This document shows positions 5,045 through 60,345 of a DNA stretch of 64,000 nucleotides, in pieces. The stretch covers positions 32,001 to 96,000 of the IMG/VR virus record IMGVR_UViG_3300042465_009257. One strand, written 5' to 3'. The notes under the pieces were generated by a model. It saw only the letters and a program-made list of their open reading frames with translations. It did no database searches and was not told where the DNA came from. The position numbers and the translations under genes are program-made. This DNA comes from a virus. How positions within the stretch are numbered: position 1 is the stretch's first letter; each line of letters starts with the position of its first letter.

Positions 5045-5536
5045 TTAAATTAAAGTTTTAAATTTTCTTGCTCTAAATTCTGAAATCTTTGTTCCACCAC
5101 CTTCTGAAATTTTGTAAACCTCTAAAATATGTCCATCTGCCGTAACTCGCCTAATTTCAATATACTTCTTCACAATTTCCTTCTCTTCACGTTCTATACG
5201 GAAAAACGGTGGACCATTAAATCTTTTAAAATCAGAAAAAGTTTGCCCAACACGCAGTAAGTCATTTGCGCTTACAAGCATTCCTCTTTTCTTTGCCGCA
5301 TTACCAATTCTAGATAAAATACGTCCAGGAATGTCTGTTCGTTGGAGGAATTCTCGTAAAAAGTAATCAGTTGGGAATTGTTCTGTCCAAATACCGCGAT
5401 CTTCAAACCACTTTTTAATATCTTCTTTGTCAATTTGTCCTCGCTGTAAATTTTTGCGAAGATTCTTAAGACTGCGTCGGAAATTAGGATGATTTCTTCT
5501 CATAAGGAAATGTATATCAGATCTTTCGAATGTCAA
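5045..5536 (-). CDS. hypothetical basic protein
   Basis: ORF track. Confidence 0.6.
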   Translation of the reverse strand: MTFERSDIHFLMRRNHPNFRRSLKNLRKNLQRGQIDKEDIKKWFEDRGIWTEQFPTDYFLREFLQRTDIPGRILSRIGNAAKKRGMLVSANDLLRVGQTFSDFKRFNGPPFFRIEREEKEIVKKYIEIRRVTADGHILEVYKISEGGGTKISEFRARKFKTLI

Positions 5537-5545
5537 GAGATTATT

Positions 5546-5899
5546 CTAAATTCTCGCAGGGATAAAAACTCTTTCAAATTTCACATTATCCTCTTCGATA
5601 AATTCAAAAGGTTCATTCTTACCGGACAAAGCCCGAAGAATTCTTTCTTTATTAAAAAGTCGTAATTTATCCTCGCAGCAACAGTATTTAATCATTGCCG
5701 TTCCGATAATCTCTTGCCCAAGAGTTACTGGTGATGCGAACATAATACATCTTTCGTAATTGTCAATTTTATATTTTAAAAAATATCTTACAAAAGCTTG
5801 GAATACAATCGATTCATCAGCGGGGCCGATTATCTCTTCGTGACTCCAAAGAGCGCCGTCATATCCCAGTTTAAAGATTGTGTAAATTCTTGATTCCAT
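5546..5899 (-). CDS. hypothetical protein
   Basis: ORF track. Confidence 0.6.
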   Translation of the reverse strand: MESRIYTIFKLGYDGALWSHEEIIGPADESIVFQAFVRYFLKYKIDNYERCIMFASPVTLGQEIIGTAMIKYCCCEDKLRLFNKERILRALSGKNEPFEFIEEDNVKFERVFIPARI

Positions 5900-6306: not shown

Positions 6307-7038
6307 TTATTCAATAACTTTTGATCCATCTTTAACTACATAATCTTTTCCAACATTTTTTAAAGTATTCCCTTTTACGTAAACTTTCGTTTTACCATCT
6401 ACATTAAGAAATGTTGGGACTCCCTCAATCATGCAATTCTCAACCCGCGCCTCCCCATGCCTCTTAGACGTACTCTCTCCAATTCTGATTGCTGTAATTC
6501 CACCTGTAATATAACAATCCCGAACAAGTAAACCAACTGCGCCATTGGCTTGCGCACTTTTATCCCCCTTTGAGTTATTGTAAAACTTACATTTAATAAT
6601 ACTTAAATTATCACTGACATCTTTTGCGTTCGAAACAAAGTCTTCAGAAGTTCCAGTAAAAATAAGATTTTCAAATGTGACATTAGACTCATAGGCTACC
6701 AGTCCTCCTGGCAAATCTTTCCCGAATCCGTTTTTAATTGTTAAATTTTTAACGCGAAGTTTAACGGGAGTATTATTTTCATCCTGTGAATTAGATGATT
6801 TTTTAAGCTTTGATCCATTTAGCTCCCCTCCTTGCAAATCAACTGTAGTGCCAGTAATTTTTACTTTATTACCAAATGCTTTAGAAATCTCATCCATGCT
6901 TCGAAAATCTGGATTTCCTGTTAATTTAATAATATGAGATGGATTTGTTTTGGGCGGCTTTGTCCCGGCTCCAGGTCCTGAACTCGCACAAGACGACAAA
7001 ACTGACGCCACAACAAATAATAGTAGTTTTTTAATCAT
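6307..7038 (-). CDS. lipoprotein with parallel beta-helix, pectate lyase PL3-like
   Basis: lipobox LSSC; SEDFVS and GDKSAQAN resemble PL3 EDA/DKxxQxN motifs; beta-helix repeats. Confidence 0.6.
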   Translation of the reverse strand: MIKKLLLFVVASVLSSCASSGPGAGTKPPKTNPSHIIKLTGNPDFRSMDEISKAFGNKVKITGTTVDLQGGELNGSKLKKSSNSQDENNTPVKLRVKNLTIKNGFGKDLPGGLVAYESNVTFENLIFTGTSEDFVSNAKDVSDNLSIIKCKFYNNSKGDKSAQANGAVGLLVRDCYITGGITAIRIGESTSKRHGEARVENCMIEGVPTFLNVDGKTKVYVKGNTLKNVGKDYVVKDGSKVIE

Positions 7039-18902: not shown

Positions 18903-19220
18903 TTATTTATTTTTAATTAAATCTACCAAAGCGTCAAGATTCTTAATCTCAACCCGTTCTTTTCCAGCGCTTTGTATTGCTGTCAATTTATTCTCCCCCA
19001 TCTTATTATCAAAAATCCACCAAGCTACCCATTGATTATCATCTCCAATTTCTCGTTGAATAGCATCAGTATATTTATCAAAAAGTCTCCAACTTAAATC
19101 TCCTAAACCCATACTGACATCAGCCCCGAGAACTTTCTCCAACGCGCTCCACTTATCGTTTAGCTCTTCATGAAATTGAAGCACTGTTTTAATTTTCTCT
19201 TTAATTTCTTTACGTTTCAA
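18903..19220 (-). CDS. hypothetical protein
   Basis: TTG start overlaps the stop of the upstream gene remnant. Confidence 0.6.
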   Translation of the reverse strand: MKRKEIKEKIKTVLQFHEELNDKWSALEKVLGADVSMGLGDLSWRLFDKYTDAIQREIGDDNQWVAWWIFDNKMGENKLTAIQSAGKERVEIKNLDALVDLIKNK

Positions 19221-19342
19221 GCTTTTAATTTGTTTAAGATTTCCTCCCGCTTTTTATTCATATATTCCGCCAACTCAGTTCCCTCCAACTTATAACACTC
19301 CTCATGAACCGCGCCGCAGTATTGAGTTGTTAAAGGGATTAT
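19217..19342 (-). pseudogene. start-less 3' remnant homologous to the C-terminus of the GT at 20528..21331
   Basis: IIPLTTQYCGAVHEECYKLEGTELAEYMNKKREEILNKLKA* aligns ungapped, 14/41 identical. Confidence 0.75.
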
Positions 19343-19365
19343 ACTCCATTTCGCCCCGATGTCAA
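19338..19365 (-). promoter_or_regulatory. outward sigma70-type promoter TTGACA-N16-TATAAT at the left edge of cassette 2
   Basis: perfect hexamers. Confidence 0.7.
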
Positions 19366-19387
19366 CTTTTTTCTATTTTTTTGTAAA

Positions 19388-19419
19388 TAAAATTTCCAAC
19401 TCCTAATTTTAAATTGTAA
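19388..19419 (+). promoter_or_regulatory. class II motif TAAAATTTC-N18-TGTAA (cassette 2)
   Basis: conserved motif and spacing. Confidence 0.7.
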
Positions 19420-19444
19420 TACAATATATAACCCAACAAATTAT

Positions 19445-19618
19445 ATGCAAAAAAGATTAAAAGACCAAGAAAGAATAGACCTCGTGTCTAAATATGAAAA
19501 CGGAATGAGTTCGTGCCAACTTTCGATTGAGTATGGAATCACGGATACAGCGATTCTGGGATTGTTAAAGCGTCGTGGGATCAAGATCCGGAAAAATTCA
19601 GATTATAAGACCAAATGA
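19445..19618 (+). CDS. small HTH protein, 57 aa (MQKRLKDQERIDLVSKYENGMSSCQLSIEYGITDTAILGLLKRRGIKIRKNSDYKTK)
   Basis: manually translated; ATGA overlap with the downstream nuclease. Confidence 0.7.
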   Translation: MQKRLKDQERIDLVSKYENGMSSCQLSIEYGITDTAILGLLKRRGIKIRKNSDYKTK

Positions 19619-20553
19619 AGAAAAGTCGCGTTGAATTAAATGATGATCAAAAAACAGAGATAATCACAGCATATGGAAATGGAGAGAAGATTCCGATGCT
19701 TAGAAATAAGTTTAATATTTCGGCAGAAAGAATTTCTAATCTTCTTAAGGATGCTGGAGTGAATTTACGAAAGCGCGGTGAATTACGTACGTATTCCATA
19801 AATCAATCTTATTTTGAAGAAATAGATACCGAGGATAAATCTTATTTCTTGGGCCTTCTCTATGCCGATGGCAATCAGGGGTCCGGCCCCTCCTCCAGAG
19901 TCAGAATTGAGCTAGCAGAGACTGATAAGGATATACTAGATCGATTTAATGATTGCCTCGATACAAATAAACCGTTATATTTCAGAAATCTTCGGGAGAA
20001 AAATCCTAATTGGCAAAATACCTATACACTGGAAATAAACAGTAAGAAAATTAGCGCAGATTTGCTTAATTGGGGATTGGTTCCAGCTAAAACTTTTAAA
20101 ATTAAATTTCCAGATTTTTTAAGAGAAGACTTAATCATTCCTTTCATTCGTGGTTATGTCGATGGAGACGGTTGTTTGTTTCGATCTTCTGTAACCATCT
20201 GCGGAAATGTGGAATTTTGCGAACAGCTTCGACAAATTATATTCGATTTAACAGGTATTAAATCAGCGTTAAGACTTCCCCAAAACCATCATCCAGACTT
20301 TAGAGTATTGATTATAGAGGGCGGCTTAAACGTCAAGAAGTTTTTAACTTGGCTTTATGGTGATTCAAAAATTCATATGGAAAGGCGTTATCAAAAATAT
20401 TTATCATTCCTTGAATGGTCTCCCAAGCCAAAGAAAAATCTTCTTCGAGGAAATGATGGGGATCTTATGGGGGCGGAAGAAAAAAGAATCAGAACAAATT
20501 CTCGCGCACGGGACCGATGGCAGAGAATTAAGAGCGAGAAAGTAACGAAATGA
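19615..20553 (+). CDS. free-standing LAGLIDADG homing endonuclease with N-terminal HTH
   Basis: YFLGLLYADG and FIRGYVDGDG motifs. Confidence 0.9.
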   Translation: MKKSRVELNDDQKTEIITAYGNGEKIPMLRNKFNISAERISNLLKDAGVNLRKRGELRTYSINQSYFEEIDTEDKSYFLGLLYADGNQGSGPSSRVRIELAETDKDILDRFNDCLDTNKPLYFRNLREKNPNWQNTYTLEINSKKISADLLNWGLVPAKTFKIKFPDFLREDLIIPFIRGYVDGDGCLFRSSVTICGNVEFCEQLRQIIFDLTGIKSALRLPQNHHPDFRVLIIEGGLNVKKFLTWLYGDSKIHMERRYQKYLSFLEWSPKPKKNLLRGNDGDLMGAEEKRIRTNSRARDRWQRIKSEKVTK

Positions 20554-21331
20554 TTTGTTTTCGCTTCTCTTTTAGCTTCACCCCTAACTCCCTCCCGTTA
20601 AATTTATATAAATCTTCCCCAATCGCGCCGCACCACCCAGGAACAATCGGTAAAACCCGCATCATAGACGCCTCTGTTAAAACGCGACAATAAGATTCGA
20701 TGGTGTAAGAGGGGGCAAAAACATAACAACTGTAGTCTTTCAAGGTGTTAAGGAATTCCAGATATTCCATGTTCCCAATAATGTCAAACGGAATATTCAA
20801 CTTTTTACATAAATCCGCCGAAGACCGTTCCCCCTTATAATCCCCGCTGATTATCGCCGCTCGGCCATTTTTTGGGCTGGATTCCTTTGAGACGCAAAAT
20901 TCAATGATTTCATCAGTCCAAAGATTGCCTCCCCAACTTTCCGTGTTTTCAAATCCATTTAATTTAAAAATAGATTCTTGGAAGGAGCTTTGACAAAAAA
21001 TCTTGGCCGATTTAAGGAATTCTACGTTAATCAGATGGTCTGGTTCAACTTTGAAGTCGGCATATTGGGCAGGATTTCTGGAACCAACGAAGAGGAAATC
21101 GTGGCTAATGTGGACGACATTCCCACGAGAAATAAGAATATCCTGAGAATCGTGACTTAAACTAGCAAAATTAGATACAATATATTTATCGGCGAGGTGC
21201 GGATTCTGATTAAATTCTTGGCAAGTTTGGAAATCAGGTTTTAGTTCAGCGTAAATAATGGCATCGCAAGATTCTGCTCCGCGATAACTGCTGCCAATCG
21301 GATTATCCGCGATAAAAAGTATTTTACTCAT
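20528..21331 (-). CDS. GT-B glycosyltransferase-like protein
   Basis: ILFIAD..GAE, VFAP..ESYCRVLTEA. Confidence 0.7.
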   Translation of the reverse strand: MSKILFIADNPIGSSYRGAESCDAIIYAELKPDFQTCQEFNQNPHLADKYIVSNFASLSHDSQDILISRGNVVHISHDFLFVGSRNPAQYADFKVEPDHLINVEFLKSAKIFCQSSFQESIFKLNGFENTESWGGNLWTDEIIEFCVSKESSPKNGRAAIISGDYKGERSSADLCKKLNIPFDIIGNMEYLEFLNTLKDYSCYVFAPSYTIESYCRVLTEASMMRVLPIVPGWCGAIGEDLYKFNGRELGVKLKEKRKQIISLLSRS

Positions 21332-21338
21332 GGTTTAT

Positions 21339-25585: not shown

Positions 25586-27574
25586 TTATGCCGCGTTTTC
25601 CCCGCTTGTCAATTTAAAATTTGTAGAATTTGGATTAAACTCTTGGAGGTCGCACCCGTTGTGAATAGCTCCGCGCCAAGTTTGCGGGGAAATCCAAACA
25701 TCTACCCATTTTTGATGATTGCGTGTCCCTTCCCAAAGTTCAAAATGTTTCACGCCAGTATATGGAACAAATCCAGTAATATAGTCTAGATGTTGGTAGA
25801 TTTCTACATATTGAGGCAAACAACATACATAAATATCCCATTCTGAAACTGGGTAAAGTTCTCGGAGACGATCTAGAACTGTTAATCCAATATAGGAATC
25901 TCCGTAGTCGCCAGACATGTCCCACATCAGTCGTTTTTTACCATTATCTTTGAAAAATTCAGAAGGATCAAAGGGTTTGCCCATTTTCTGATCAACCATC
26001 TTTTTGGACTCCTCATAAATTTGTTGGCGAGTCGTTCCGCTTGCAAACCGCTGCGTTATTGTCTTAAAATCTTGATGATCCTCATTAATTTTATTTCCAA
26101 AAAAGTTCCAAACTAATTCTTTAATGAATTCTGGTTCATCTGTAGCAGTTGGGAAGGGCGCGTTTGGATTTAACCTCTCTGTTCTGAAATCAAAAGAATA
26201 ATTTGAAATTGGCAATTGATCTAAATATTCCTCAATAGTTTTTAATGTTACATCTGGATGAATCGTTTTCATCGCCCATTCACGGAACTTTAATCCTTTT
26301 TGTTTAGACTCTTCTGGATTATTATAGACCTCCTCCATAAAATCGCAGATGGATTCAGTAGAAGGGACTGCTTTTTTATAAAGGCTTCCCATCTCTTTAT
26401 CAAAAGCATAGGTGATAGGGAAAACAGCATTTGATTCCATAAACATCTCCCCAAAAGAGTAGTCAACGGTAGCTGTATAAACTCCAGCGAAAGCGGCCTC
26501 GGCCACTGTCAGTTCAAATCCTCCTGAATTAATTGGAGCGACATATCCGTTAAAAAGATTATAAAGTTCAACTAAATCATTTTCTAGTATTCCTTTTTCA
26601 ATCGAAATATTCTTAAGGGCTTTAGCTGTGCCGCACTTTGGACAATCATTCTCCGGTCCTTCAATTTCTTTCAAAACTGTCTCGCCGCAACTATGACAAG
26701 TGTGGGCGCACAAAACGTCTTTTGGGTCTAATCCAGCATGTTCGACTCCTAGCTTTAAATTCCAGCCTTCTAGAAAATTAGTACAAAAAACGAATTTAGA
26801 TTTTACGCTTGGATTACGGGTTTGGAATTCTTTAAGCCCATCAATAGCTGCAATCATTCTTTTGCGCGTTTGGTTACGACTGACGAATCCAAAGACAAGA
26901 CAGTCTTCATCAATTCCGTATTTTTTCCTGACGTTTTTTTTCTCTTCGTCATCGAATACACGATAAGGACCAACTTCCATTAAACATGGCCAAAGCCCCA
27001 CATGAGAATGACCCAAGCGGTGAAGATCTTTTTGAGCAAAAGAAGACTTAACGAAAAAGCGTTTTGACTTTTTTACTCCATCTAATAGCATTTCCATGGC
27101 AGGAAGTGAATCAACTGGCGTCTGGATGATGGTATTAAATTTATCCCACCACTCTGTTTCCCAGTAAGGAACGAAAGCTTTATCAGAGAATTTGCGCAAA
27201 ACAGACATCGCCCAAATATCCTCTACAGCTAAGAAAATATCTGGTTTAACTTCCTTAAGAACGCTTTCAATCCGCGCCGCTCCATAAGCAACCATCCTTT
27301 GCAGGTTGGGATCATGATTGCCATTACTATCCTTTGCTAAACCAACGAAAACTGATGATTCATCAGCAGGAATTCCTCCGTAACATTTCCATGGACGCGC
27401 TCTTAGTTTTGGGCTTTCTTCTACTGCCCCTTGGGCAAACTCATGAACTTCCCATTTTTTTGATCCATCTGGATTTTTACGGGAATAGAGGTAGCGAAGA
27501 AGAACTTTGAGATTTTTTGAAAAACCTGTTTGAAGATCAGCAGATGTACTGGAAATAAGAATTTTACGTGGCAT
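25586..27574 (-). CDS. large GT-B (GT4-like) glycosyltransferase with Zn ribbon and C-terminal GT9 N-domain-like region
   Basis: VSRNQTRK, GGFELTVAEA, CHSC...CPKC, GDYGD...LRELYP; start MPRKIL after a TTGACA-N17-TACAAT promoter. Confidence 0.8.
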   Translation of the reverse strand: MPRKILISSTSADLQTGFSKNLKVLLRYLYSRKNPDGSKKWEVHEFAQGAVEESPKLRARPWKCYGGIPADESSVFVGLAKDSNGNHDPNLQRMVAYGAARIESVLKEVKPDIFLAVEDIWAMSVLRKFSDKAFVPYWETEWWDKFNTIIQTPVDSLPAMEMLLDGVKKSKRFFVKSSFAQKDLHRLGHSHVGLWPCLMEVGPYRVFDDEEKKNVRKKYGIDEDCLVFGFVSRNQTRKRMIAAIDGLKEFQTRNPSVKSKFVFCTNFLEGWNLKLGVEHAGLDPKDVLCAHTCHSCGETVLKEIEGPENDCPKCGTAKALKNISIEKGILENDLVELYNLFNGYVAPINSGGFELTVAEAAFAGVYTATVDYSFGEMFMESNAVFPITYAFDKEMGSLYKKAVPSTESICDFMEEVYNNPEESKQKGLKFREWAMKTIHPDVTLKTIEEYLDQLPISNYSFDFRTERLNPNAPFPTATDEPEFIKELVWNFFGNKINEDHQDFKTITQRFASGTTRQQIYEESKKMVDQKMGKPFDPSEFFKDNGKKRLMWDMSGDYGDSYIGLTVLDRLRELYPVSEWDIYVCCLPQYVEIYQHLDYITGFVPYTGVKHFELWEGTRNHQKWVDVWISPQTWRGAIHNGCDLQEFNPNSTNFKLTSGENAA

Positions 27575-27625
27575 TGTGTATAGAATTGTAAGATATTTTT
27601 TAGACTTTGTCAAATTATTTTCACA

Positions 27626-27657
27626 TAAAATTTCCTTCTACCAGTTTCCGCTTGTAA
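27626..27657 (+). promoter_or_regulatory. class II motif TAAAATTTC-N18-TGTAA (cassette 3)
   Basis: conserved motif and spacing. Confidence 0.7.
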
Positions 27658-27668
27658 TTAAAAGTATT

Positions 27669-27824
27669 ATGAGAACTAAAACTAAAACTGAAAAATATAC
27701 ATTCACCTTTGATAAGCCTACCGTAGAACTTTTGGCTAGAATTGTGGATTTTACTGAAATGAGTCAAATTAAAATTGTTACTCGCGCTATTGAAGATTAC
27801 GCGAAAAAGAAAGGGGTCGAATAA
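27669..27824 (+). CDS. ribbon-helix-helix protein, 51 aa (MRTKTKTEKYTFTFDKPTVELLARIVDFTEMSQIKIVTRAIEDYAKKKGVE)
   Basis: paralog of the other cassette RHH proteins. Confidence 0.8.
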   Translation: MRTKTKTEKYTFTFDKPTVELLARIVDFTEMSQIKIVTRAIEDYAKKKGVE

Positions 27825-27825
27825 G

Positions 27826-28917
27826 ATGGATATTGAAGACGAAGAGGAGGAAGATAACCGCCAAAGGTGTATCTACAAAATAACTTGTCTCTTAAACGGG
27901 AAAATCTATATCGGTCAGACTGTTCATTTTGACAAAAGGATGACTCAGCATAAAAATAATAATGGAAAGGCTACTACGATGTATATTGATCGGGCTATTG
28001 AATTTCACGGAGTCGATAATTTTGTTAACGAAATTATTTGTAATTGTCGAAATCTGACTCACGCTAACGAAATGGAGAAATTTTTTATCGCCTTCTATGA
28101 TACGTTTGAAGGGGATGGATACAACTTAACCGAGGGAGGGAGTAACGCAAAAAAATCCCTTTCGGTGAAAAAGAAGATGTCAAAAGCAAAACAAGGCTGG
28201 AAACCTGCATCCTCGAAAAGACTCTTTCTTGGCGTTTCCACACGGAAGGGAAGTAAATCTTTCACCACCACGGTATCTGTCGGATTAAGTAACTCAAAAA
28301 GTAAAAACTTTCCTACTCAAATTGAAGCGGCAGAAGCGTATGATAAGGTTGTTTTGTTTATTTTTGGAAACGATGCGGTTTTAAACTTTCCTGAGAAGCT
28401 AGATGATTATTTATCATTGGATCTTGAATTATTCTACAATTTATTTATTTTTAACAATTCGCCGAGATATAGTAATTTTGTTGGAGTTACAAAAAAGAAA
28501 GATAAATTTGGAAATTTAAAATGGACAGTTCTTTTCCAAGGGAGGCTCCGTAAAATTTTGTACGCTCAAATAAGAGAAACTGGAGGGGATTTCATTCCAT
28601 TAGAATTTTTCGACACTGAAATAGATGCTGCAATCTTTTCTGATAAATTTATTTTTTACTTTGATCTACCATGTCGCTTTAATTTTCCCGAAATTATTGT
28701 AAATCTATCGAAAACAGAACTAGCTTCAATTTTTGCAGAAAGGATAAAAACAAGATATTGTGCATATACTGGAGTCAGCTTTAGCCGTGGGAAATGGATA
28801 AAATTTTATACCGATAGCAAGGGTCAGCATAGAACTATCCGGGGTGGCCACGCTACCGCTGATGAGGCTCATATCGCTCGTCAAGAGTTCCTTCTGCAAA
28901 ACGAAAAATCCCAGTAA
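27826..28917 (+). CDS. GIY-YIG homing endonuclease with AP2-like repeats
   Basis: CIYKITCLLNGKIYIGQT, GYNLT.GG, EAAEAYD...LNFP. Confidence 0.9.
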   Translation: MDIEDEEEEDNRQRCIYKITCLLNGKIYIGQTVHFDKRMTQHKNNNGKATTMYIDRAIEFHGVDNFVNEIICNCRNLTHANEMEKFFIAFYDTFEGDGYNLTEGGSNAKKSLSVKKKMSKAKQGWKPASSKRLFLGVSTRKGSKSFTTTVSVGLSNSKSKNFPTQIEAAEAYDKVVLFIFGNDAVLNFPEKLDDYLSLDLELFYNLFIFNNSPRYSNFVGVTKKKDKFGNLKWTVLFQGRLRKILYAQIRETGGDFIPLEFFDTEIDAAIFSDKFIFYFDLPCRFNFPEIIVNLSKTELASIFAERIKTRYCAYTGVSFSRGKWIKFYTDSKGQHRTIRGGHATADEAHIARQEFLLQNEKSQ

Positions 28918-39452: not shown

Positions 39453-39464
39453 CTAAAGGTATCT

Positions 39465-39620
39465 ATGAGATTAAAAATTGTTACCGAAAAATATCACTTC
39501 ACCTTTAGTAAGTCATTATCAGAATTGTTTAAGAGAATTGTTAAAGAGACTGACCTTTCTCAAATTCGCGTTATTGAGCGTGCCATCGAAGATTTCGCGG
39601 TTAAGAAGGGGGTAAAATAA
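39465..39620 (+). CDS. ribbon-helix-helix protein, 51 aa (MRLKIVTEKYHFTFSKSLSELFKRIVKETDLSQIRVIERAIEDFAVKKGVK)
   Basis: manually translated; close paralog of 27669..27824. Confidence 0.8.
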   Translation: MRLKIVTEKYHFTFSKSLSELFKRIVKETDLSQIRVIERAIEDFAVKKGVK

Positions 39621-39621
39621 T

Positions 39622-40620
39622 ATGAAGAAGGGTCGTGGAAATTACAGGCTAGACAATTATGTTTATCTATACTTAGATAATCGGAAGCTTGGTAAATGGG
39701 AATTTAGAGACTGGACTTTTCTTTATCAGCCATTTTATGTCGGACGCGGTCTTGATGATAGAATTAACGCACATACAAAGCCGTCTGAACTTTCTAAACC
39801 TTTTCGGAAATCTAGGATAATAAATAAAATAAGACGAGTTCTAGGGGAGGAGGTTATCCGATTTAAACTTTATGAAGATTTATCTTACCAAGAATCGGCG
39901 TTCCTCGAAAAGGATATAATTGCATTTTTTGGGAGAGAGAAAAATGGAGGTATTTTGGTTAATCTCTCTAAGGACGAATGGGACCGCCCGGCGAAAGAAC
40001 GAACTTCAAAAACCTCAAATTCAAGAGCGTTACCCACGAGTAAAAGAGTTAATCAATATTCTTTAGATGGAGTTTTTATAAAAACTTGGGAGTATTTAAC
40101 AGAAATAAGAAACTCTCTGAGAGGGAAAAGTCGAGGGATTGAGTATAGAATCAGAGAATGTTGCAGGGGCGAAAGAGATAACTGTGATGGTTTTATTTGG
40201 AAATATGAGGGGACTTCCCCTTACTCTCCTCCTCGCATTCCTCAGCCACACTCTAAACCTGTTTTTCAATATTTCAATGGGAATTTTGTAAAAAGTTATG
40301 AATCTGGTGTCGAGGCGGCATTACAAACCGGATTAAATCATAAAGCTATATCACTATGTTGTCTAGGAAAAACTAAGACATCAGGAGGTTTTCGGTGGTT
40401 TTTCGAATATGTAGGAGAATCTATACCTCCTCTTGCAGCCACTGTTCGAAAACTATACGGAAGAGGTGTCAACTGTTTCGATTTGGAAATGAACTTTCTT
40501 GAAAAATATATAAATATCAAGGATTTTTCAAGATCCAACTCTATAAATGAATCTGCGGGCTATCGCGCTGTAAATACTGGTTTACCCGTTAAGGGGTTTT
40601 ATGTAAAATACTCTTCATAG
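39622..40620 (+). CDS. GIY-YIG-family endonuclease with NUMOD1 repeats
   Basis: YVYLY...FYVGRG..R..H; VNQYSLDG.FIKTW, I..CC.G..K..GGF.W. Confidence 0.85.
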   Translation: MKKGRGNYRLDNYVYLYLDNRKLGKWEFRDWTFLYQPFYVGRGLDDRINAHTKPSELSKPFRKSRIINKIRRVLGEEVIRFKLYEDLSYQESAFLEKDIIAFFGREKNGGILVNLSKDEWDRPAKERTSKTSNSRALPTSKRVNQYSLDGVFIKTWEYLTEIRNSLRGKSRGIEYRIRECCRGERDNCDGFIWKYEGTSPYSPPRIPQPHSKPVFQYFNGNFVKSYESGVEAALQTGLNHKAISLCCLGKTKTSGGFRWFFEYVGESIPPLAATVRKLYGRGVNCFDLEMNFLEKYINIKDFSRSNSINESAGYRAVNTGLPVKGFYVKYSS

Positions 40621-56007: not shown

Positions 56008-56514
56008 TTAGGATTGGTCAATCTCTGTTTCTTCGATTTGAATGGTTTTGTCAAACTTTTTGATAAGAGCAAAAGATGAATCTAATCCAAATAAAGTTTC
56101 TGCCCAAGTTGAAATCCAGCCTTCAGTATTTTCAAGGGTTTCCCAAGAAGGGAGGTATAAAACTTCAGGAGGTCCATGCGGCTCAAAAACTTCAAAGCAT
56201 TGAATAATCCAATCCATTCCTGGTTTTAGAGAAGTGAAAATCCGCGCATCTTCTTCCATCGCTAAACTTTCTAAGTTGAATACTGAAACAGTCACAGTAA
56301 ATTTCTCATGCTGATCCTCAATCAATTGCGTCATCACCTGATATCGTATTCCACCATCAATAGATACCAAAAATGGTTCCCGATGGGAGAAACAGGCTGC
56401 ACGGACTAGGTTGGATTGAGACATTTGTTTTTTACGATAAACGCGATTATTGGACTTGTCAATGGAATATATAATGGAAAACCTGCGATAAGGCAAATCC
56501 CGAGAGATAGCCAA
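56008..56514 (-). CDS. hypothetical protein (probable start MSQSNL)
   Basis: ORF track. Confidence 0.55.
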   Translation of the reverse strand: MAISRDLPYRRFSIIYSIDKSNNRVYRKKQMSQSNLVRAACFSHREPFLVSIDGGIRYQVMTQLIEDQHEKFTVTVSVFNLESLAMEEDARIFTSLKPGMDWIIQCFEVFEPHGPPEVLYLPSWETLENTEGWISTWAETLFGLDSSFALIKKFDKTIQIEETEIDQS

Positions 56515-56702
56515 AGATTATGGCACAATTGGCATTTCCACAAGTTGAAAATTAAATCTGCACAAATTTTTTCAGCGGCGCGACGACTTTGCATCCAAAT
56601 CAGAAGCCTAGTTCTGAAATCTTCAAAAAGTGTAGACTCATGGGTTACAAAATTTAAATAAGACAGTAAAATGCCTACGCAAATAATTAGTTCTAAATTC
56701 AT
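56406..56702 (-). CDS. DUF1360-like membrane protein
   Basis: LFEDFR, LWKCQLCHNLW, TM helices. Confidence 0.55.
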   Translation of the reverse strand: MNLELIICVGILLSYLNFVTHESTLFEDFRTRLLIWMQSRRAAEKICADLIFNLWKCQLCHNLWLSLGICLIAGFPLYIPLTSPIIAFIVKNKCLNPT

Positions 56703-57388
56703 ACATCTTGTAAACCTTCTTTTAGCTCCGAGTCAACCCATTTTTCCATTTTTCTCACCATCTCGCCGCCTTCTTTCCACAAACCAGAATTTTCCTTCAT
56801 TACACGTTCCACCTCTAAACGTGGAATCGACTCTCCATTCTCAAATTTGCTAAAATCATGCCAGCGGAATTGAACATCAGCAGCTTTGCGGATTAGTGGG
56901 TCATTTTTCTCTTCCTCGCTGTTCGCTGGCTCTAGAACATGGAATTGCCCATACCAGTCCTTGCTGTCATATCTTTCAACGTGGACGATTTTCCCACCAT
57001 TAGATTTTACAAATCCAAGCTCGTCGCCGCCGCCAAATTCCGCAAAACGCAAATCCGTAATAAATCTTACTTGCGGTCCTTCTGGGGAAAGGAGAGTATC
57101 TCGGATTTTATTCAACCAATACTGCCCCTTACTATCATTTCTGCGGAGCTTGCCATATTGAACAAGCAATGGCCGAACCCTTGTCTTCTCTTCAGTAACC
57201 TCGGTAAACGCCGAAAATCCAAACTTATCAGTTATAAAATGGTCCAGGTCTCTCTTCAATTCGTCGGCGAAAGCCCATCGCCCGCAGGTGATTCCTTCTT
57301 CTTTGAGAAAATCAGAGGCGAATCTGTAAAAAGAGTCCTTGCCCGATCGCCCGACCCCCGAAAGGGCTATAATTTTAAATGATTTCAT
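56699..57388 (-). CDS. deoxynucleoside monophosphate kinase
   Basis: SGVGRSGKD, FADELK, RPLLVQYG, ITDLRF; start MKSFK 6 nt after TATAAT. Confidence 0.85.
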   Translation of the reverse strand: MKSFKIIALSGVGRSGKDSFYRFASDFLKEEGITCGRWAFADELKRDLDHFITDKFGFSAFTEVTEEKTRVRPLLVQYGKLRRNDSKGQYWLNKIRDTLLSPEGPQVRFITDLRFAEFGGGDELGFVKSNGGKIVHVERYDSKDWYGQFHVLEPANSEEEKNDPLIRKAADVQFRWHDFSKFENGESIPRLEVERVMKENSGLWKEGGEMVRKMEKWVDSELKEGLQDV

Positions 57389-57524
57389 TCCTTTATTATA
57401 GGTGGAAACGAAAGAAAAAGTCAACCGACTGTCTCAAAATGATTATTTTCGCGAAAAAAAATGGTTGAGGCTTTCGGATTTGACCAAAAAACGGGCAGGA
57501 AAAGAATCATTAATAATTTAAAAT

Positions 57525-57556
57525 AAATTGTTCCCTTTTCTTTACCATTCCTGTAA
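57525..57556 (+). promoter_or_regulatory. class II motif variant AAATTGTTC-N18-TGTAA (cassette 5)
   Basis: TTC-N18-TGTAA conserved. Confidence 0.6.
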
Positions 57557-57570
57557 TTAAACATATAATT

Positions 57571-57729
57571 ATGAATCACCGAATTAAAACTAAACGCTAT
57601 AATTTTTGCTTTGACCCGAAAATTGACGAACTCTTGAAAAAAATTAAAGCAGAAACTTCAATAGGATTAACGAAAATTGTGGAGTTAGCTGTTGTTGATT
57701 TTGCCGAAAAGAAAGGAGTTTCTTTATGA
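57571..57729 (+). CDS. ribbon-helix-helix protein, 52 aa (MNHRIKTKRYNFCFDPKIDELLKKIKAETSIGLTKIVELAVVDFAEKKGVSL)
   Basis: manually translated; paralog; ATGA overlap with the nuclease. Confidence 0.8.
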   Translation: MNHRIKTKRYNFCFDPKIDELLKKIKAETSIGLTKIVELAVVDFAEKKGVSL

Positions 57730-58523
57730 TCGGTGTCGTTTTTAACATGAATATCGAATCTCTTGCGATTTGCCCAAGAACCAACGGAATTTACAAAATC
57801 ACAAATACGAAAACAGGAAGATTCTATATTGGCCGAGCAGAATACAAGAAAGGTTTTTTTCGCCGGTGGTATCACCATAGGTGGCAACTTAGAAAAAATA
57901 TCCATGAAAATCCTCATTTGCAAAACTCTTATAACAAATATGGAGAGTCTTGTTTCACCTTCGAGATTCTTGAAATTAAAGACTATGGAGATCCGTTAAT
58001 AGATCTAGAGTCAGAATATATCATAAATTTAAAAGCCATGTACTTTGAAGACGGGTATAATCTTACGAATGAAAGGTTTGCCGCAAAATATCCTAAAATA
58101 TACAGAGAAAATCATCATAACTCAAAAGAATTTGAACTGCTTGACCCAGAAGGAAATTTAATTAAAGGCAGGAATTTAAGTCAATTCTGTGAAGAACTAG
58201 ATGTGGGCGTAGGAGCCATGTGGGATGTCATCCACGGAGATAGAAAATCCTACAAAGGATTCAAATCTCCCAATCCCGAATTTCACGTAGTTAAAAAAGA
58301 GTATCGCTTGCTCTCGCCCGAAAAAGAATTGTTCGTATTTGACAACGCCGCAGAATTCGCGAGAAAGATAGGGGTAAACAAACGTTCTATACACAAAGTA
58401 TTAAAAGGGGAAAGGTCTAATGCCGAGGGCTACCATCTTGAAAATCCATTACCAGAACATCAAAGAAATCTTGATAATTATTTCAATAGGAAGCATCTCT
58501 CTGATCGAATCAACTTTCAATGA
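57726..58523 (+). CDS. GIY-YIG homing endonuclease with two C-terminal DNA-binding repeats
   Basis: GIYKITNTKTGRFYIGRA, R..H..L..N.H.N..LQ, E, GYNL. Confidence 0.9.
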   Translation: MIGVVFNMNIESLAICPRTNGIYKITNTKTGRFYIGRAEYKKGFFRRWYHHRWQLRKNIHENPHLQNSYNKYGESCFTFEILEIKDYGDPLIDLESEYIINLKAMYFEDGYNLTNERFAAKYPKIYRENHHNSKEFELLDPEGNLIKGRNLSQFCEELDVGVGAMWDVIHGDRKSYKGFKSPNPEFHVVKKEYRLLSPEKELFVFDNAAEFARKIGVNKRSIHKVLKGERSNAEGYHLENPLPEHQRNLDNYFNRKHLSDRINFQ

Positions 58524-58674
58524 ATCCGTCCAAATCCTTTTTTAGCTCATCAGCAAAAGCCCAGCGGCCACATGAAATTCCCTCCGTTTCTAGAAATTCC
58601 GAAGCGAAGCGGTAAAAAGAGTCCTTCCCCGCCCGACCGACGCCAGAGATTCCGATAATTTTAAATGGTTGCAT
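58510..58674 (-). pseudogene. truncated 5' copy of the dNMP kinase gene (54 aa) with its own promoter
   Basis: 41/54 aa identical to the N-terminus of 56699..57388. Confidence 0.85.
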
Positions 58675-58726
58675 TGATGAATTGTATCGGGCTTTTGTGC
58701 GGAAAGTCAATCTTAGAATTTTTAAA

Positions 58727-58758
58727 ATTAAATTCCTTTTCTGCATATTCGCCTGTAA
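58727..58758 (+). promoter_or_regulatory. class II motif ATTAAATTC-N18-TGTAA
   Basis: conserved spacing; 6 nt before the TTG of the PolA-like ORF. Confidence 0.6.
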
Positions 58759-58764
58759 AAGAAC

Positions 58765-60345
58765 TTGACTTATTTGATTTCCGACTTTTTAATTACTGTG
58801 ATGCCTAAAATGAATTACTCTCTGGTAAACCCCGATAAAACGATTCTCAAAAATGAAAACATGATTCGAACAATAGGGTATGGGGGAGAGGGGACCATTG
58901 CTGGAGGGAGGGAGAGGGTGTCTCTTTATAAGGGGAGGTTTAGAGAAGTACAAGAAGTAATAGAGGGGAGGTCTATACTTAGTAATGATGTAGATTGGGA
59001 ATTTAAAGAGAAATCTTTCTTAATCCCTTCAGACTTTTCTAATAATGAGCTTCTTAGCCTTGGCTTGAAAGAGAAACATATTGCGAATGCTATGGTTTTT
59101 CTTTCCTTATTAAGGATTTCAACAAAGTACAAAGAGGTTGTTCTGAGGGATGTTAATCCATTCAGTAGAATTAACAGTATAGTTCTTTCGGAATTTATGT
59201 TAACTCTTGGCTCCGGTACGAAAGACATGTTGAAAAAATTAAGCATTGCACAATGGATTGAGATTGACCATTCTTACCAAGCAGGAATCAAATCAAAAGG
59301 ATATCGTCTTGGGAAAAGATTTGAAAACTCAAAATGGATTTCCGCAAATTGGAAAGAAAGTCTTGAAAAATTTGTCCCAGGTGTCCTGCAAGGAGGTTAT
59401 ATTTCTAGGAGCAGAGATGTTTTGTATGGACTCTGGGATAGAGCTTGTATATATTTTACCAACTGGCAGGCTATGGCTGACGGCCCTTTAAAGGAAATCT
59501 GCAAAAGAACGTCAGAAATAGGCCGTAAATTGATCGTAAGATACTGTGAGGCTCTGACTAAGGAAATTAATACAAACGCTGTAGAGCATATCAAATGCCC
59601 AGCAAATCAAGCATCTGTAGAAAATGGATGGACACTAGAGAAACAAATTCAAAATTATTGGGATTCTTTGTCGTATTTTGACGGTAAAAGTTTTTCTGTT
59701 ACCTGTCACGACGAAAGGTTTAAGTTTTTTACTTACCGTTTGTATTCAAATGTTGTAAATTTAAAATCTGAGTTTCGCCAATTTCTAGAACTAGATGGAC
59801 AGCAAATGGTGAACGTGGATATCCAATCCTGCCAAGTGGCTTTACTGGCGACATTCTATAACACTGAAGATTTAGTGGAAAAAGAGAAATTCATCAAAAT
59901 TATTTGCGAAAAAGATATTTATCTATTTATCGCGGGAGATAAAATTGAGCGGAAACAAGCGAAATCTGACTTTTTCTATATCATGTTCGACAAGAATTGT
60001 AACCAAAAAGGAGAAACTTGCCGCCGATTTAAAGAGGAATTTCCAATCTTAACTCAAAGGATTTACGACGAAAAGAAAAGAAATGGTTATAAAAGTGTAG
60101 CTCGTCTAATGCAGACAAAAGAAGCTTCTATTATGATATTAGGAGCATTGAATAAACTCCTTTTCGTAAATGAAATTGAAGCTTTTTCAATCCACGACTC
60201 TATCTTTTGTCTTCTTAAAGACGTAAAATTAGTAGAAGAAACTATCCGCTCCTTCTTTACAAATCAAATGGGCTTCTGCCCAGCAATTAAAGTGGAAGCG
60301 CCCAGAGTGGATGAATCTGCCAACCGTATTGGGCAGCAATCATAA
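58765..60345 (+). CDS. family A polymerase-like protein (wHTH-like N-part plus PolA palm motifs, no exonuclease)
   Basis: RLYS, motif A VDIQSCQ, motif B RKQAK, Q..EA, motif C IHDS. Confidence 0.7.
   Translation: MTYLISDFLITVMPKMNYSLVNPDKTILKNENMIRTIGYGGEGTIAGGRERVSLYKGRFREVQEVIEGRSILSNDVDWEFKEKSFLIPSDFSNNELLSLGLKEKHIANAMVFLSLLRISTKYKEVVLRDVNPFSRINSIVLSEFMLTLGSGTKDMLKKLSIAQWIEIDHSYQAGIKSKGYRLGKRFENSKWISANWKESLEKFVPGVLQGGYISRSRDVLYGLWDRACIYFTNWQAMADGPLKEICKRTSEIGRKLIVRYCEALTKEINTNAVEHIKCPANQASVENGWTLEKQIQNYWDSLSYFDGKSFSVTCHDERFKFFTYRLYSNVVNLKSEFRQFLELDGQQMVNVDIQSCQVALLATFYNTEDLVEKEKFIKIICEKDIYLFIAGDKIERKQAKSDFFYIMFDKNCNQKGETCRRFKEEFPILTQRIYDEKKRNGYKSVARLMQTKEASIMILGALNKLLFVNEIEAFSIHDSIFCLLKDVKLVEETIRSFFTNQMGFCPAIKVEAPRVDESANRIGQQS

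Follow-up and report, generated by a model that had tools for sequence, protein, structure and literature searches.

Organization of the kinase locus

The window analysed here (the whole stretch of 64,000 nucleotides) is part of a 173-kb environmental phage genome. At the locus, a small ribbon-helix-helix (RHH) gene and a nuclease gene lie between a deoxynucleoside monophosphate (dNMP) kinase gene and a second copy of the kinase 5' end. The features are:

56699..57388, minus strand: dNMP kinase gene A, a 229-aa ORF; a chimera of imported sequence (nt 1 to ~267) and resident sequence (nt ~277-690)
57122..57388, minus strand: imported kinase 5' segment (A nt 1-267), made of the duplicated nt 1-156 and the co-converted nt 157 to ~267
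57395..57424, minus strand (57424-57386 up to the ATG): putative promoter P_A, TTGACT-N18-TATAAT-N6-ATG, carried by the cassette; sigma-70-like score 11/12
57571..57729, plus strand: RHH ORF, 52 aa; its stop overlaps the nuclease start (ATGA)
57726..58523, plus strand: ORF of a putative GIY-YIG and NUMOD-like homing endonuclease, 265 aa; overlaps the end of B at 58510-58523
58510..58674, minus strand: displaced resident kinase 5' end B; kinase-derived nt 1-156 at 58519-58674, then a short junction remnant and TGA
58681..58710, minus strand (58710-58672 up to the ATG): putative promoter P_B, TTGACT-N18-TACAAT-N6-ATG, the native kinase promoter; score 10/12
57123..58524, no strand: transferred block, comprising the junction remnant, nuclease, RHH gene, both promoter regions and kinase nt 1-266

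The original prediction for this locus had given the coordinates, the 58510-58523 overlap, 41/54 identical residues between the two kinase copies and both promoters, and all of these sequence statements hold. The stub next to the nuclease gene is annotated here as a 78-aa hypothetical ORF call. Elsewhere in the same genome, a mirror-image case is found at the 3' end of a glycosyltransferase (GT) gene, adjoining an unrelated LAGLIDADG nuclease.

The product of gene A matches PHROG 139 (deoxynucleoside monophosphate kinase) with an E-value of 4.7e-14. Against Pfam DNMK it scores 17.8 bits, under the 27.1-bit cutoff, and PF21448 is precomputed on more distant kinase homologues. A profile search of PDB sequences with the kinase returned no match. 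In a test of the P-loop near the N-terminus, a G-x-G-x-x-G-K-D motif was found to be invariant in the kinase alignment. From sequence alone, gene A is inferred to be the functional copy and a putative T4 gp1-like dNMP kinase.

Close relatives of the locus were obtained through a metagenome scan and exact-protein look-ups. Only three cassette-bearing lineages are known, each from independent assemblies: the window, L152 (NCBI GCA_050655915.1) and L156 (ENA ERZ4226905), the last counted together with L157 (ENA ERZ4227755). A further assembly with the same architecture, L153, comes from Logan. At least five cassette-free loci were available (L011, L095, L159, L014 and a 30-kb Logan contig). A blastn search of GenBank phages with the 4.5-kb region gave zero matches. 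IMG/VR scans with the kinase recovered only relatives of at most 48% identity, none of them with a nuclease adjoining the kinase.

A chimeric kinase gene with a foreign 5' end

Gene A consists of two parts with different histories. Compared with the intact L159 allele, it differs at 83 positions of nt 1-276 and at 3 of nt 277-690 (Fisher p 5e-33), which corresponds to 66-71% identity over nt 1-252 and 99% over nt 277-690. The original prediction had proposed a breakpoint analysis against relatives, and the L159 comparison places the chimera boundary between nt ~267 and ~277. The A copy of L156 shows the same pattern against L095, with 68-71% identity followed by 99% further 3' (Fisher p 6e-30). 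One imported 5' end is joined to two 3' backgrounds, an L159-type and an L095-type.

The imported segment is shared among the cassette-bearing genomes. Over nt 1-266 there is no difference between window A and L156 A (100% identity), and over nt 1-156 window A and L152 A are 97% identical. The identity of window A to the intact alleles L159, L095 and L011 is only 66-72%, and to L014 it is 78% (nt 1-156) and 68% (nt 157-252). Overall, A nt 1 to ~266 diverges by ~30% from each of the intact alleles, and the synonymous differences have reached saturation. The 90% cluster has 23 members, of which 13 full-length ones could be aligned, and among these the A-type 5' end is confined to the three cassette-bearing genomes. 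None of the sampled intact kinases has an A-type 5' end.

This 5' end had been described as "recoded". The segment is better understood as an import from a kinase lineage that is more distant and unsampled. A deliberately recoded 5' end was dropped as an explanation: the segment has 76-80% protein identity to the resident cluster, about as distant as the N-termini of kinases of other phage groups, which fits import from an unsampled lineage. The imported tract also extends beyond the duplicated part, reaching kinase nt ~210-275.

The displaced 5' end and the two putative promoters

Remnant B starts with an ATG at 58674, runs for 54 codons and ends with a TGA at 58510-58512. It differs from the intact L159 5' end at 7 of 156 positions (149/156 identical, 96%), whereas A is 71% identical to L159. 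The B copy of L156 is identical to intact L095 at 156/156 positions. Between A and B, 41 of 54 residues (76%) are identical at the amino-acid level and 70.5% of nucleotides over nt 1-156. A comparison of substitutions between the copies had also been proposed, and it gave a pS of 0.91 (~31.5/34.5 synonymous sites differ) and a pN of 0.12. The prediction that these are two once-functional alleles and not a fresh target-site duplication is supported by the match of each B copy to an intact allele and by the divergence of A from all of them. In L152, remnant B has changes at invariant kinase positions (R14W, D18E, W38C, D47H) and is therefore a decaying pseudogene.

A and B are homologous from the ATG onwards, and the sequences that precede it have nothing in common except the promoter hexamers and the distance between them. 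P_A and P_B are the two best sigma-70-like sites in 56300-59000. The composite promoter pattern has three matches in the 64 kb, these two included, where 0.01 would be expected by chance. The spacer and upstream sequence of P_A could not be aligned with the native kinase upstream region, while the P_B region aligns as one contiguous stretch with the intergenic sequence of the cassette-free L011, L095 and L159. P_B now heads remnant B and points antisense into the nuclease gene. The function and use of both promoters are inferred from these motifs.

The nuclease and the RHH gene

The nuclease ORF has its own start and stop and lies on the strand opposite to the kinase. The best of its matches to PHROG homing-endonuclease families has an E-value of 1.4e-19 (range 1e-19 to 1e-18). 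The Pfam GIY-YIG match is weak (E 0.0021, 18.8 bits, under the curated 22.6-bit cutoff); relatives at 66-68% identity pass it (P0039 with 39 bits, P0037 with 23.8 bits). Downstream of the catalytic domain there is a separate DNA-binding module, detected at residues 205-237 by Pfam I-HmuI_NUMOD-like above its cutoff of 27 (E 7.6e-8, 32.3 bits). Alignment with 321-aa relatives showed that the last ~60 residues of this family are missing and that the protein is cut exactly at the junction with B. The missing residues are possibly a third DNA-binding module. The L152 form of the nuclease has 260 aa.

The RHH ORF matches Pfam RHH_3 just under the cutoff (E 3e-4). Homologous ORFs of 50-52 aa occur upstream of full-length nuclease relatives in L154, L161, L165 and L166, and elsewhere the 321-aa relatives with their small upstream ORF form ordinary intergenic free-standing cassettes. 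The closest full-length relatives adjoin a glycosyltransferase or lie between an ERCC4-like gene and the terminase; none is beside a kinase. The search for a donor, in which a full-length nuclease would precede an A-type kinase, was unsuccessful.

Between the window and L152, both genes have evolved under purifying selection, as judged from their substitutions. The nuclease dN/dS is 0.10 (258 codons, 43 synonymous and 22 non-synonymous changes, dS 0.36), and the RHH ORF is 96% identical with a dN/dS of 0.06. In L156 the invariant Tyr236 of the nuclease is replaced by a nonsense codon (TAC to TAG, window position 58433), so at least one copy is decaying.

A group I intron-encoded homing endonuclease was considered and rejected. 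An Rfam search of 56600-58900 detected no group I or group II intron model at E <= 1 (the only hit was a chance-level IS009, E 0.18), and gene A is complete as an ORF without splicing. Nine other ORFs of the genome match this nuclease, among them GIY-YIG paralogues and ORFs of related nucleases, and their 2-kb flanks contained no protein-level flank duplication at E <= 1e-3. The kinase case is therefore not typical of every cassette in this genome.

Insertion and transfer of the cassette

In the cassette-free loci, a gene of 526 aa and the dNMP kinase gene are adjacent, ~90 nt apart. The cassette and the duplication are both present in the window, L152 and L156/L157. In the window, L152 and L156, the RHH and GIY-YIG genes are located at kinase nt ~156 and each genome has the 54-codon remnant. 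Cassette presence is therefore polymorphic at a fixed site (three lineages with it, at least five loci without), with a co-converted flank. The original prediction would have been refuted by a duplication without the cassette, and no cassette-free genome carries one (at least five loci).

Over 1,402 bp the window and L156 have a single difference (at 58433), and the flanks on both sides are 80-87% identical. The left edge of this block is the nuclease/B junction. The right-hand end points vary among the three genomes (~nt 210, 253-266 and 259-275), so that the imported tract reaches ~55-120 nt past the duplicated part; variable end points of this kind would be expected for co-conversion tracts. 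With this block the insertion point can be placed to a precision of a few nucleotides, and the co-conversion tract has defined limits. Between the window and L152, identity shifts sharply at the nuclease gene, from 97-100% on one side to 55-77% on the other. By sequence comparison alone, then, it is demonstrated that a 1.4-kb unit moved between different kinase alleles. The alignments establish the polarity as well: it is insertion and not loss.

The claim that the cassette supplies a promoter and a 5' end is supported: among the aligned cluster members the A-type end occurs only with the cassette, and it travels with the nuclease in the nearly identical block. The proposed intron-less invasion with rescue by a gene end is supported as well, the duplication being present in all three lineages with the cassette, absent from the at least five loci without it, and accompanied by no detected ribozyme. 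As an interpretation of sequence, the original prediction is largely supported.

Proposed mechanism and alternative explanations

The locus is probably a composite element, built around a free-standing homing endonuclease, that has settled in a phage dNMP kinase gene at nt ~156. Its cargo would be the small RHH gene and the C-terminally truncated GIY-YIG/NUMOD nuclease on one strand and, on the other, a sigma-70-like promoter followed by nt 1 to ~156 of a kinase whose lineage is more distant. The nuclease is inferred to cut cassette-free kinase alleles near the insertion point, and a co-infecting cassette-bearing genome is inferred to act as the repair template for the break. The 5' part of the recipient gene would pair with the donor remnant B and its 3' part with donor A past nt 156. 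The nuclease, RHH gene, promoter and foreign 5' end would then be copied in, together with 55-120 nt of co-converted kinase sequence. The kinase gene would never be lost in this process: it would receive a new promoter and 5' end (~90 codons) in frame with its resident 3' two-thirds, and the old promoter and 5' end would be left as a dead stub. The imported 5' end, which is ~30% different from the intact alleles around the site, presumably shields the carrier from self-cleavage. The cut near codon ~50 and the resistant resident allele of the original prediction are inferences that rest on recombination end points alone.

The origin of the element is likewise inferred. A full-length RHH and nuclease cassette would have been located upstream of the kinase promoter in the donor lineage. 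Repair would have been homologous at one end and illegitimate at the other, creating both the 3' truncation of the nuclease and the remnant. The loss of the last DNA-binding module at this founding junction may have retargeted the nuclease to the kinase gene. Several points count against the homing model: cleavage data are lacking, the nuclease is ~60 residues shorter than its family and is decaying in L156, its GIY-YIG match is under the cutoff, neither the donor nor an intact A-type kinase turned up, the cassette-bearing lineages number only three, and transfer of the block by ordinary homologous recombination is possible in principle.

The main alternative is that the locus is the scar of a single old illegitimate event, in which the nuclease is inert or domesticated and the block spreads or persists by ordinary homologous recombination. 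The truncation relative to the 321-aa family and the nonsense codon in L156 would fit this, as would the general mosaicism of the region, where the side of the 526-aa gene is only 55-78% identical between all genomes. It is nevertheless considered unlikely. An inert nuclease is hard to reconcile with a dN/dS of 0.10 between lineages separated by a dS of 0.36. In addition, the left block edge is the insertion junction itself, and in three genomes the right edge is no more than ~110 nt away from it; edges at or near the insertion site are predicted by break repair, not by random crossovers. An assembly artefact, in which a chimeric contig joined the kinase alleles of two strains, had been named as another possible refutation and is a natural concern for a metagenome-derived viral contig. 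It can be set aside almost completely, since the same architecture and junctions recur in L152, L153, L156 and L157, which are independent assemblies from different projects and samples.

Two other histories of the duplication are very improbable. The kinase 5' end could have been duplicated in tandem in situ and have diverged later, with the cassette inserted between the copies and no foreign end involved. That both copies have the TTGACT-N18-TAxAAT-N6-ATG architecture is in line with such a history, which is already contradicted on several counts. B matches the intact allele of its own background at 96-100% of positions. A is either identical or 97% identical across genomes whose kinase 3' parts differ by 12-13% and whose flanks differ by 15-45%. 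The divergent tract continues for another ~55-120 nt where the duplication has ended, and no cassette-free genome has the duplication. It is just as improbable that the cassette-bearing state is ancestral and that recombination between the A and B repeats deleted the cassette to give the cassette-free alleles. A and B are indeed direct repeats of 156 nt with 71-81% identity, and in L152 they are identical over a 59-nt tract (nt 55-113), which suggests that the copies exchange sequence. The product of such a deletion would be A-type at nt 157-276, however, and L159, L095, L011 and L014 differ from A there by ~27-34%. The cassette-free alleles are therefore not deletion products, and insertion of a homing element remains the preferred reading.

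Implications

To our knowledge, free-standing homing endonucleases have been thought to be intergenic only, unless an intron or intein conceals them or the gene tolerates being split. The kinase locus would be a fourth solution in phage, in which the start of the gene is replaced, promoter included. It also offers a concrete mechanism for sharp recombination boundaries at nuclease genes, for chimeric core genes in phage phylogenies, and for orphan promoters and short gene stubs beside nuclease genes that are annotated as hypothetical ORFs. Alleles from before and after the insertion are both available from nature and the block is bounded, so synthetic DNA would allow direct tests of the target site, of the homing bias and of the immunity inferred for the imported allele.

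Gene-end replacement could be a general, self-sufficient homing strategy of phages with both homology arms in one conserved gene. This extension is tentative and is not quite favoured at present. If true, a stub on one side and a foreign, cleavage-resistant end on the other (with a promoter if it is a 5' end) would place both arms in a single gene, and the element could invade any phage that has the target gene, whatever its neighbours.

Comparison with known systems

No phage precedent and no precedent for a 5' end with a promoter was found. Nuclease genes have been linked to genetic-exchange boundaries and "HEG islands" (PMC10448857), and at the kinase locus identity likewise changes abruptly exactly at the nuclease gene. 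A search of that article for the relevant terms found no description of gene-end duplication or replacement.

The proposed origin resembles the illegitimate one-sided double-strand-break repair known from T4 intron homing (Parker, Belisle and Belfort 1999, as summarised in PMC2988022). In both, repair would be homologous on one side and rely on microhomology or an illegitimate join on the other, resulting in ectopic invasion. According to that summary the T4 case is an engineered laboratory system, whereas the kinase element, if its inferred origin is correct, would be a natural, self-sufficient mobile unit.

Some phage genes are split by the insertion of a homing endonuclease, such as Aeh1 nrdA/mobE and T4 gene 39/60/mobA (PMC2988022). 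The kinase locus is similar in that an endonuclease gene is located within an essential or conserved phage coding region without an intron or intein. In nrdA and 39/60, however, both halves are expressed and reassemble as subunits, while in the kinase the upstream piece is discarded and replaced and there is one polypeptide.

T4-like free-standing GIY-YIG (Seg) and HNH (Mob) endonucleases carry out intron-less homing with co-conversion of flanking markers (PMC2988022; SegB, PMC2330249; MobE, PMC2790892). Shared features are the free-standing nuclease, a GIY-YIG domain (putative at the kinase locus) with a C-terminal DNA-binding part, presence/absence polymorphism, co-converted sequence of a conserved nucleotide-metabolism gene, and a carrier allele that is divergent around the presumed target. 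Seg and Mob genes are normally intergenic, with homology in two different flanking genes, whereas the kinase element is inside a gene. Both of its homology arms are in that one gene because the gene end is duplicated.

The closest precedent, by analogy, is the mobile ORFs (mORFs) of fungal mitochondria, which carry foreign gene 3' ends. Those with a foreign C-terminus have been described in Allomyces macrogynus atp6 and in Glomus atp6, atp9, cox2 and nad3 (PMC3630166; the Allomyces mORF is 1994 work as cited there). As in the mORFs, where the enzyme is of the GIY-YIG or LAGLIDADG type, an endonuclease ORF lies inside a conserved protein gene, the divergent gene end borne by the element is the functional one, and the native end is kept adjacent and resembles close relatives. 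The kinase locus has the same layout, with the endonuclease ORF flanked by two versions of the gene end, a functional foreign one and a displaced relative-like one. It differs in its host, a bacteriophage (a 173-kb virus record) instead of an organelle genome, and in the replacement of the 5' end, so that the element must also bring a promoter and a start codon. The mORFs are co-oriented and often in phase with the host gene; the nuclease of the kinase locus is antisense, has its own RHH gene and is not fused in frame. For the kinase element, a block with a single mismatch documents transfer between backgrounds. Since the nuclease is antisense, with its own RHH gene and promoter region, in a virus genome, the element may be said to work like an mORF without being a member of that group.

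Organization of the kinase locus

The viral record is 173,358 bp long (its bases 32001-96000 form the window) and is rated complete by CheckV. In the window, a deoxynucleoside monophosphate (dNMP) kinase gene is separated from a displaced kinase 5' remnant by a two-gene cassette:

56699-57388, minus strand: gene A, kinase of 229 aa (PHROG 139 deoxynucleoside monophosphate kinase, E 4.7e-14)
57571-57729, plus strand: ribbon-helix-helix (RHH) ORF of 52 aa, between A and B
57726-58523, plus strand: GIY-YIG/NUMOD-like endonuclease of 265 aa, between A and B, with an ATGA overlap with the RHH stop
58674-58510, minus strand: fragment B, 54 codons + TGA, ~1.3 kb upstream of A on the same strand

The Pfam DNMK match of gene A scores under the Pfam cutoff. 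The N-terminal 52-54 residues of A align with fragment B without a gap (76% identity), and the final nuclease codons are the antisense reading of the end of B. Synonymous divergence between the two copies has reached saturation (pS 0.91), against a pN of 0.12. Both kinase copies are preceded by TTGACT-N18-TA(T/C)AAT-N6-ATG, and these are the top two promoter-like sites in the region; the composite pattern has 3 matches in 64 kb (0.01 expected), two of them being these sites. The original prediction held that a cassette splits the kinase locus and supplies a promoter and 5' end. Every feature it described, namely A, B, the nuclease, both promoters and the many synonymous changes, was found.

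Gene callers annotate B as a 78-aa hypothetical protein (P0111, 58510-58746, minus strand) starting from an upstream in-frame ATG. This ATG lies upstream of the native promoter -35 box, which makes the annotated N-terminus probably spurious.

Relatives without the cassette

Close metagenome relatives were obtained by protein searches and exact look-ups. In the loci L011/L012/L013, L095 and L159, in a 30-kb Logan contig and, partly, in L014, a divergently transcribed 526-aa gene (window 58765-60345) lies ~90 nt from the kinase, and neither nuclease nor duplication was found in any of these loci. A first blastn alignment to them runs unbroken from window 61500 to 58519, spanning the native intergenic sequence and nt 1-156 of the kinase. 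A second begins 1 base ahead of the kinase ATG and covers window 57389 and below, so the duplicated unit comprises nt 1-156 of the kinase gene. The 180 nt upstream of A have no counterpart in the native locus of these cassette-free relatives.

The 526-aa protein has no Pfam or PHROG match. Its gene is hypervariable, with 55-78% nucleotide identity between related phages (homologues in L011, L095, L152, L156 and L159) and 80-100% for the genes beyond the cassette, and it adjoins the recombination boundary. In related phages OrfB_IS605/Cas12f-like TnpB genes lie downstream of the kinase, a few genes away (L011:4297-5292, L155:6945-8174); the window has no TnpB gene at the matching place.

The imported end of the kinase

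Compared with the intact L159 allele, gene A of the window has 83 differences in nt 1-276 and 3 in nt 277-690 (Fisher p 5e-33). For A of the cassette-bearing locus L156 and the intact L095 allele, the counts are 76 in nt 1-252 and 6 in nt 253-690 (p 6e-30). Fragment B of the window differs from L159 at 7/156 positions and that of L156 from L095 at 0/156. In identity matrices the three A 5' ends are mutually 97-100% identical and only 70-72% identical to L159, L095 and L011 (78% to L014), while every B clusters with the intact allele of its own background, as does every A 3' part. By these groupings, the resident gene consists of B and the 3' two-thirds of A, and the first ~210-275 nt of A are imported. 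Among the 13 full-length members aligned from the 23-member 90% kinase cluster, the A-type N-terminus occurs only in the three cassette-bearing genomes and all others have the B-type. The imported N-terminus is 76-80% identical (protein) to the resident cluster, about as distant as the N-termini of other phage groups' kinases, and no source for it was found among the sampled kinases.

Two further lineages share the RHH + nuclease + remnant organization and have an identical junction: L152 (NCBI assembly GCA_050655915.1; a Logan run contains it too) and L156/L157 (from two ENA assemblies). Recurrence of the junction in separate assemblies rules out an assembly artefact. Intact alleles could also have been products of cassette loss through recombination between A and B. 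This is excluded, as they are non-A-type at nt 157-276, which fixes the polarity as insertion with co-conversion.

Mobility of the unit

The window and L156 differ at 1 position across 57123-58524 (1,402 bp), and the immediate flanks are 80-87% identical on both sides. This block starts on the left at the nuclease/B junction and, besides the nuclease and RHH genes, includes the junction remnant, the two promoter regions and nt 1-266 of the kinase. One imported 5' end was thus fused to two different 3' backgrounds, themselves 88% identical. The right-hand end points vary among the three cassette genomes (~nt 210, 253-266, 259-275), exactly as predicted if breaks at the insertion site are repaired after resection to varying extents.

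The window is 97-100% identical to L152 over the kinase and the genes beyond and 87-96% over the nuclease, with an abrupt drop to 55-77% from the B remnant onward. The drop is a recombination boundary at the nuclease gene, of the same kind as those known from ICP1-like and other phages (PMC10448857). Within L152, remnant B (6765-6932) and A (5478-5642) are identical over kinase nt 55-113 and different on either side, which suggests ectopic gene conversion between them.

State of the nuclease and the remnant

Relatives of the nuclease, ~321 aa long, lie in ordinary intergenic positions, downstream of a homologous 50-52-aa ORF. The kinase-locus copies end at residue ~259, precisely at the start of the kinase remnant, so the founding junction removed the last ~60 residues. 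By eye, the missing residues look like a third copy of a NUMOD-like module seen twice upstream, but this has no Pfam match. Between the window and L152 the nuclease has 43 synonymous and 22 non-synonymous changes (dN/dS 0.10), and dN/dS for the RHH is 0.06. On these ratios, both genes have been maintained by selection since the truncation. The sole difference between the window and L156 in the shared block turns the invariant nuclease Tyr236 into a stop in L156, a start of decay as expected for an element once fixed. Remnant B of L152 has replacements at four positions invariant in kinases and, to judge from these, is decaying.

A 50-60-aa ORF translationally coupled to a homing-endonuclease start is a recurrent module (window 27534-28914, 39453-40617 and 57571-58523; L154:4852-5966, L161:1785-2905 and L165:918-2032, loci with full-length nuclease relatives). 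The small ORF is RHH-like in the kinase-locus cassette. Its three window copies share 41-56% identity and have different partner nucleases; a possible role is autoregulation of nuclease expression.

Proposed mechanism and origin

The nuclease is inferred to cut cassette-free kinase alleles near nt 156, a cut site that is itself inferred. The 5' side of the break would pair with the donor remnant B and the 3' side with donor gene A past nt 156, and repair would copy in all sequence between the paired arms. The carrier allele would be protected, since the site's right half is missing at the B junction and A is divergent around the site (~14/41 positions); this immunity is also an inference. The kinase would stay functional because the element brings a promoter, start codon and in-frame 5' end, promoter use being inferred. 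The promoter of A shares hexamers and ATG spacing with the native one but has an unrelated spacer, which suggests that it was the donor lineage's own kinase promoter.

The likeliest origin, likewise inferred, starts from a donor with a full-length cassette immediately 5' of its kinase promoter. This cassette would have cut a phage in which the adjoining upstream gene, the hypervariable 526-aa one, gave no homology; repair would then have used homology on the kinase side and an illegitimate join on the opposite side. Such one-sided illegitimate repair is documented in T4 intron homing (Parker et al. 1999, summarised in PMC2988022).

A second case and other duplications

In the second case, an intact glycosyltransferase (GT) gene and an orphan frame flank an HTH + LAGLIDADG cassette (window 19217-21334):

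20528-21331, minus strand: intact GT gene, on one side of the cassette
19217-19372, minus strand: orphan 51-codon frame, on the other side

The orphan frame matches the intact GT C-terminus (36% over 39 residues, E 2e-9) and resembles the C-termini of relatives' GTs (P0113, P0114) much more closely than does the divergent C-terminus of the intact gene itself. From these similarities the locus looks like a 3'-end replacement, a mirror image of the kinase case with an unrelated nuclease family. No flank duplication was found at the nine other genome matches to the kinase-locus nuclease (GIY-YIG paralogues and related nuclease ORFs). Self-comparison uncovered further partial N-terminal duplications of neighbouring genes (59-72% over 72-113 aa) at genome 132786-137230 (window 100786-105230, outside the window) and 116672-117358 (window 84672-85358), not adjacent to the nuclease genes examined.

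Comparison with known systems

Phage Seg and Mob endonucleases carry out intron-less homing with co-conversion of adjacent genes, and some divide genes into two working subunits (PMC2988022, PMC2790892, PMC2330249). In searches of open-access text no case was found of gene-end duplication or replacement in phages, nor, in any system, of a 5' end and promoter as the carried part; an existing description is not excluded. The closest match in logic to the kinase cassette is provided by the mobile endonuclease ORFs of fungal mitochondria, which on insertion carry a foreign C-terminus into atp6, atp9, cox2 or nad3, the native C-terminus remaining as a downstream duplicate (PMC3630166, where the Allomyces atp6 case is cited).
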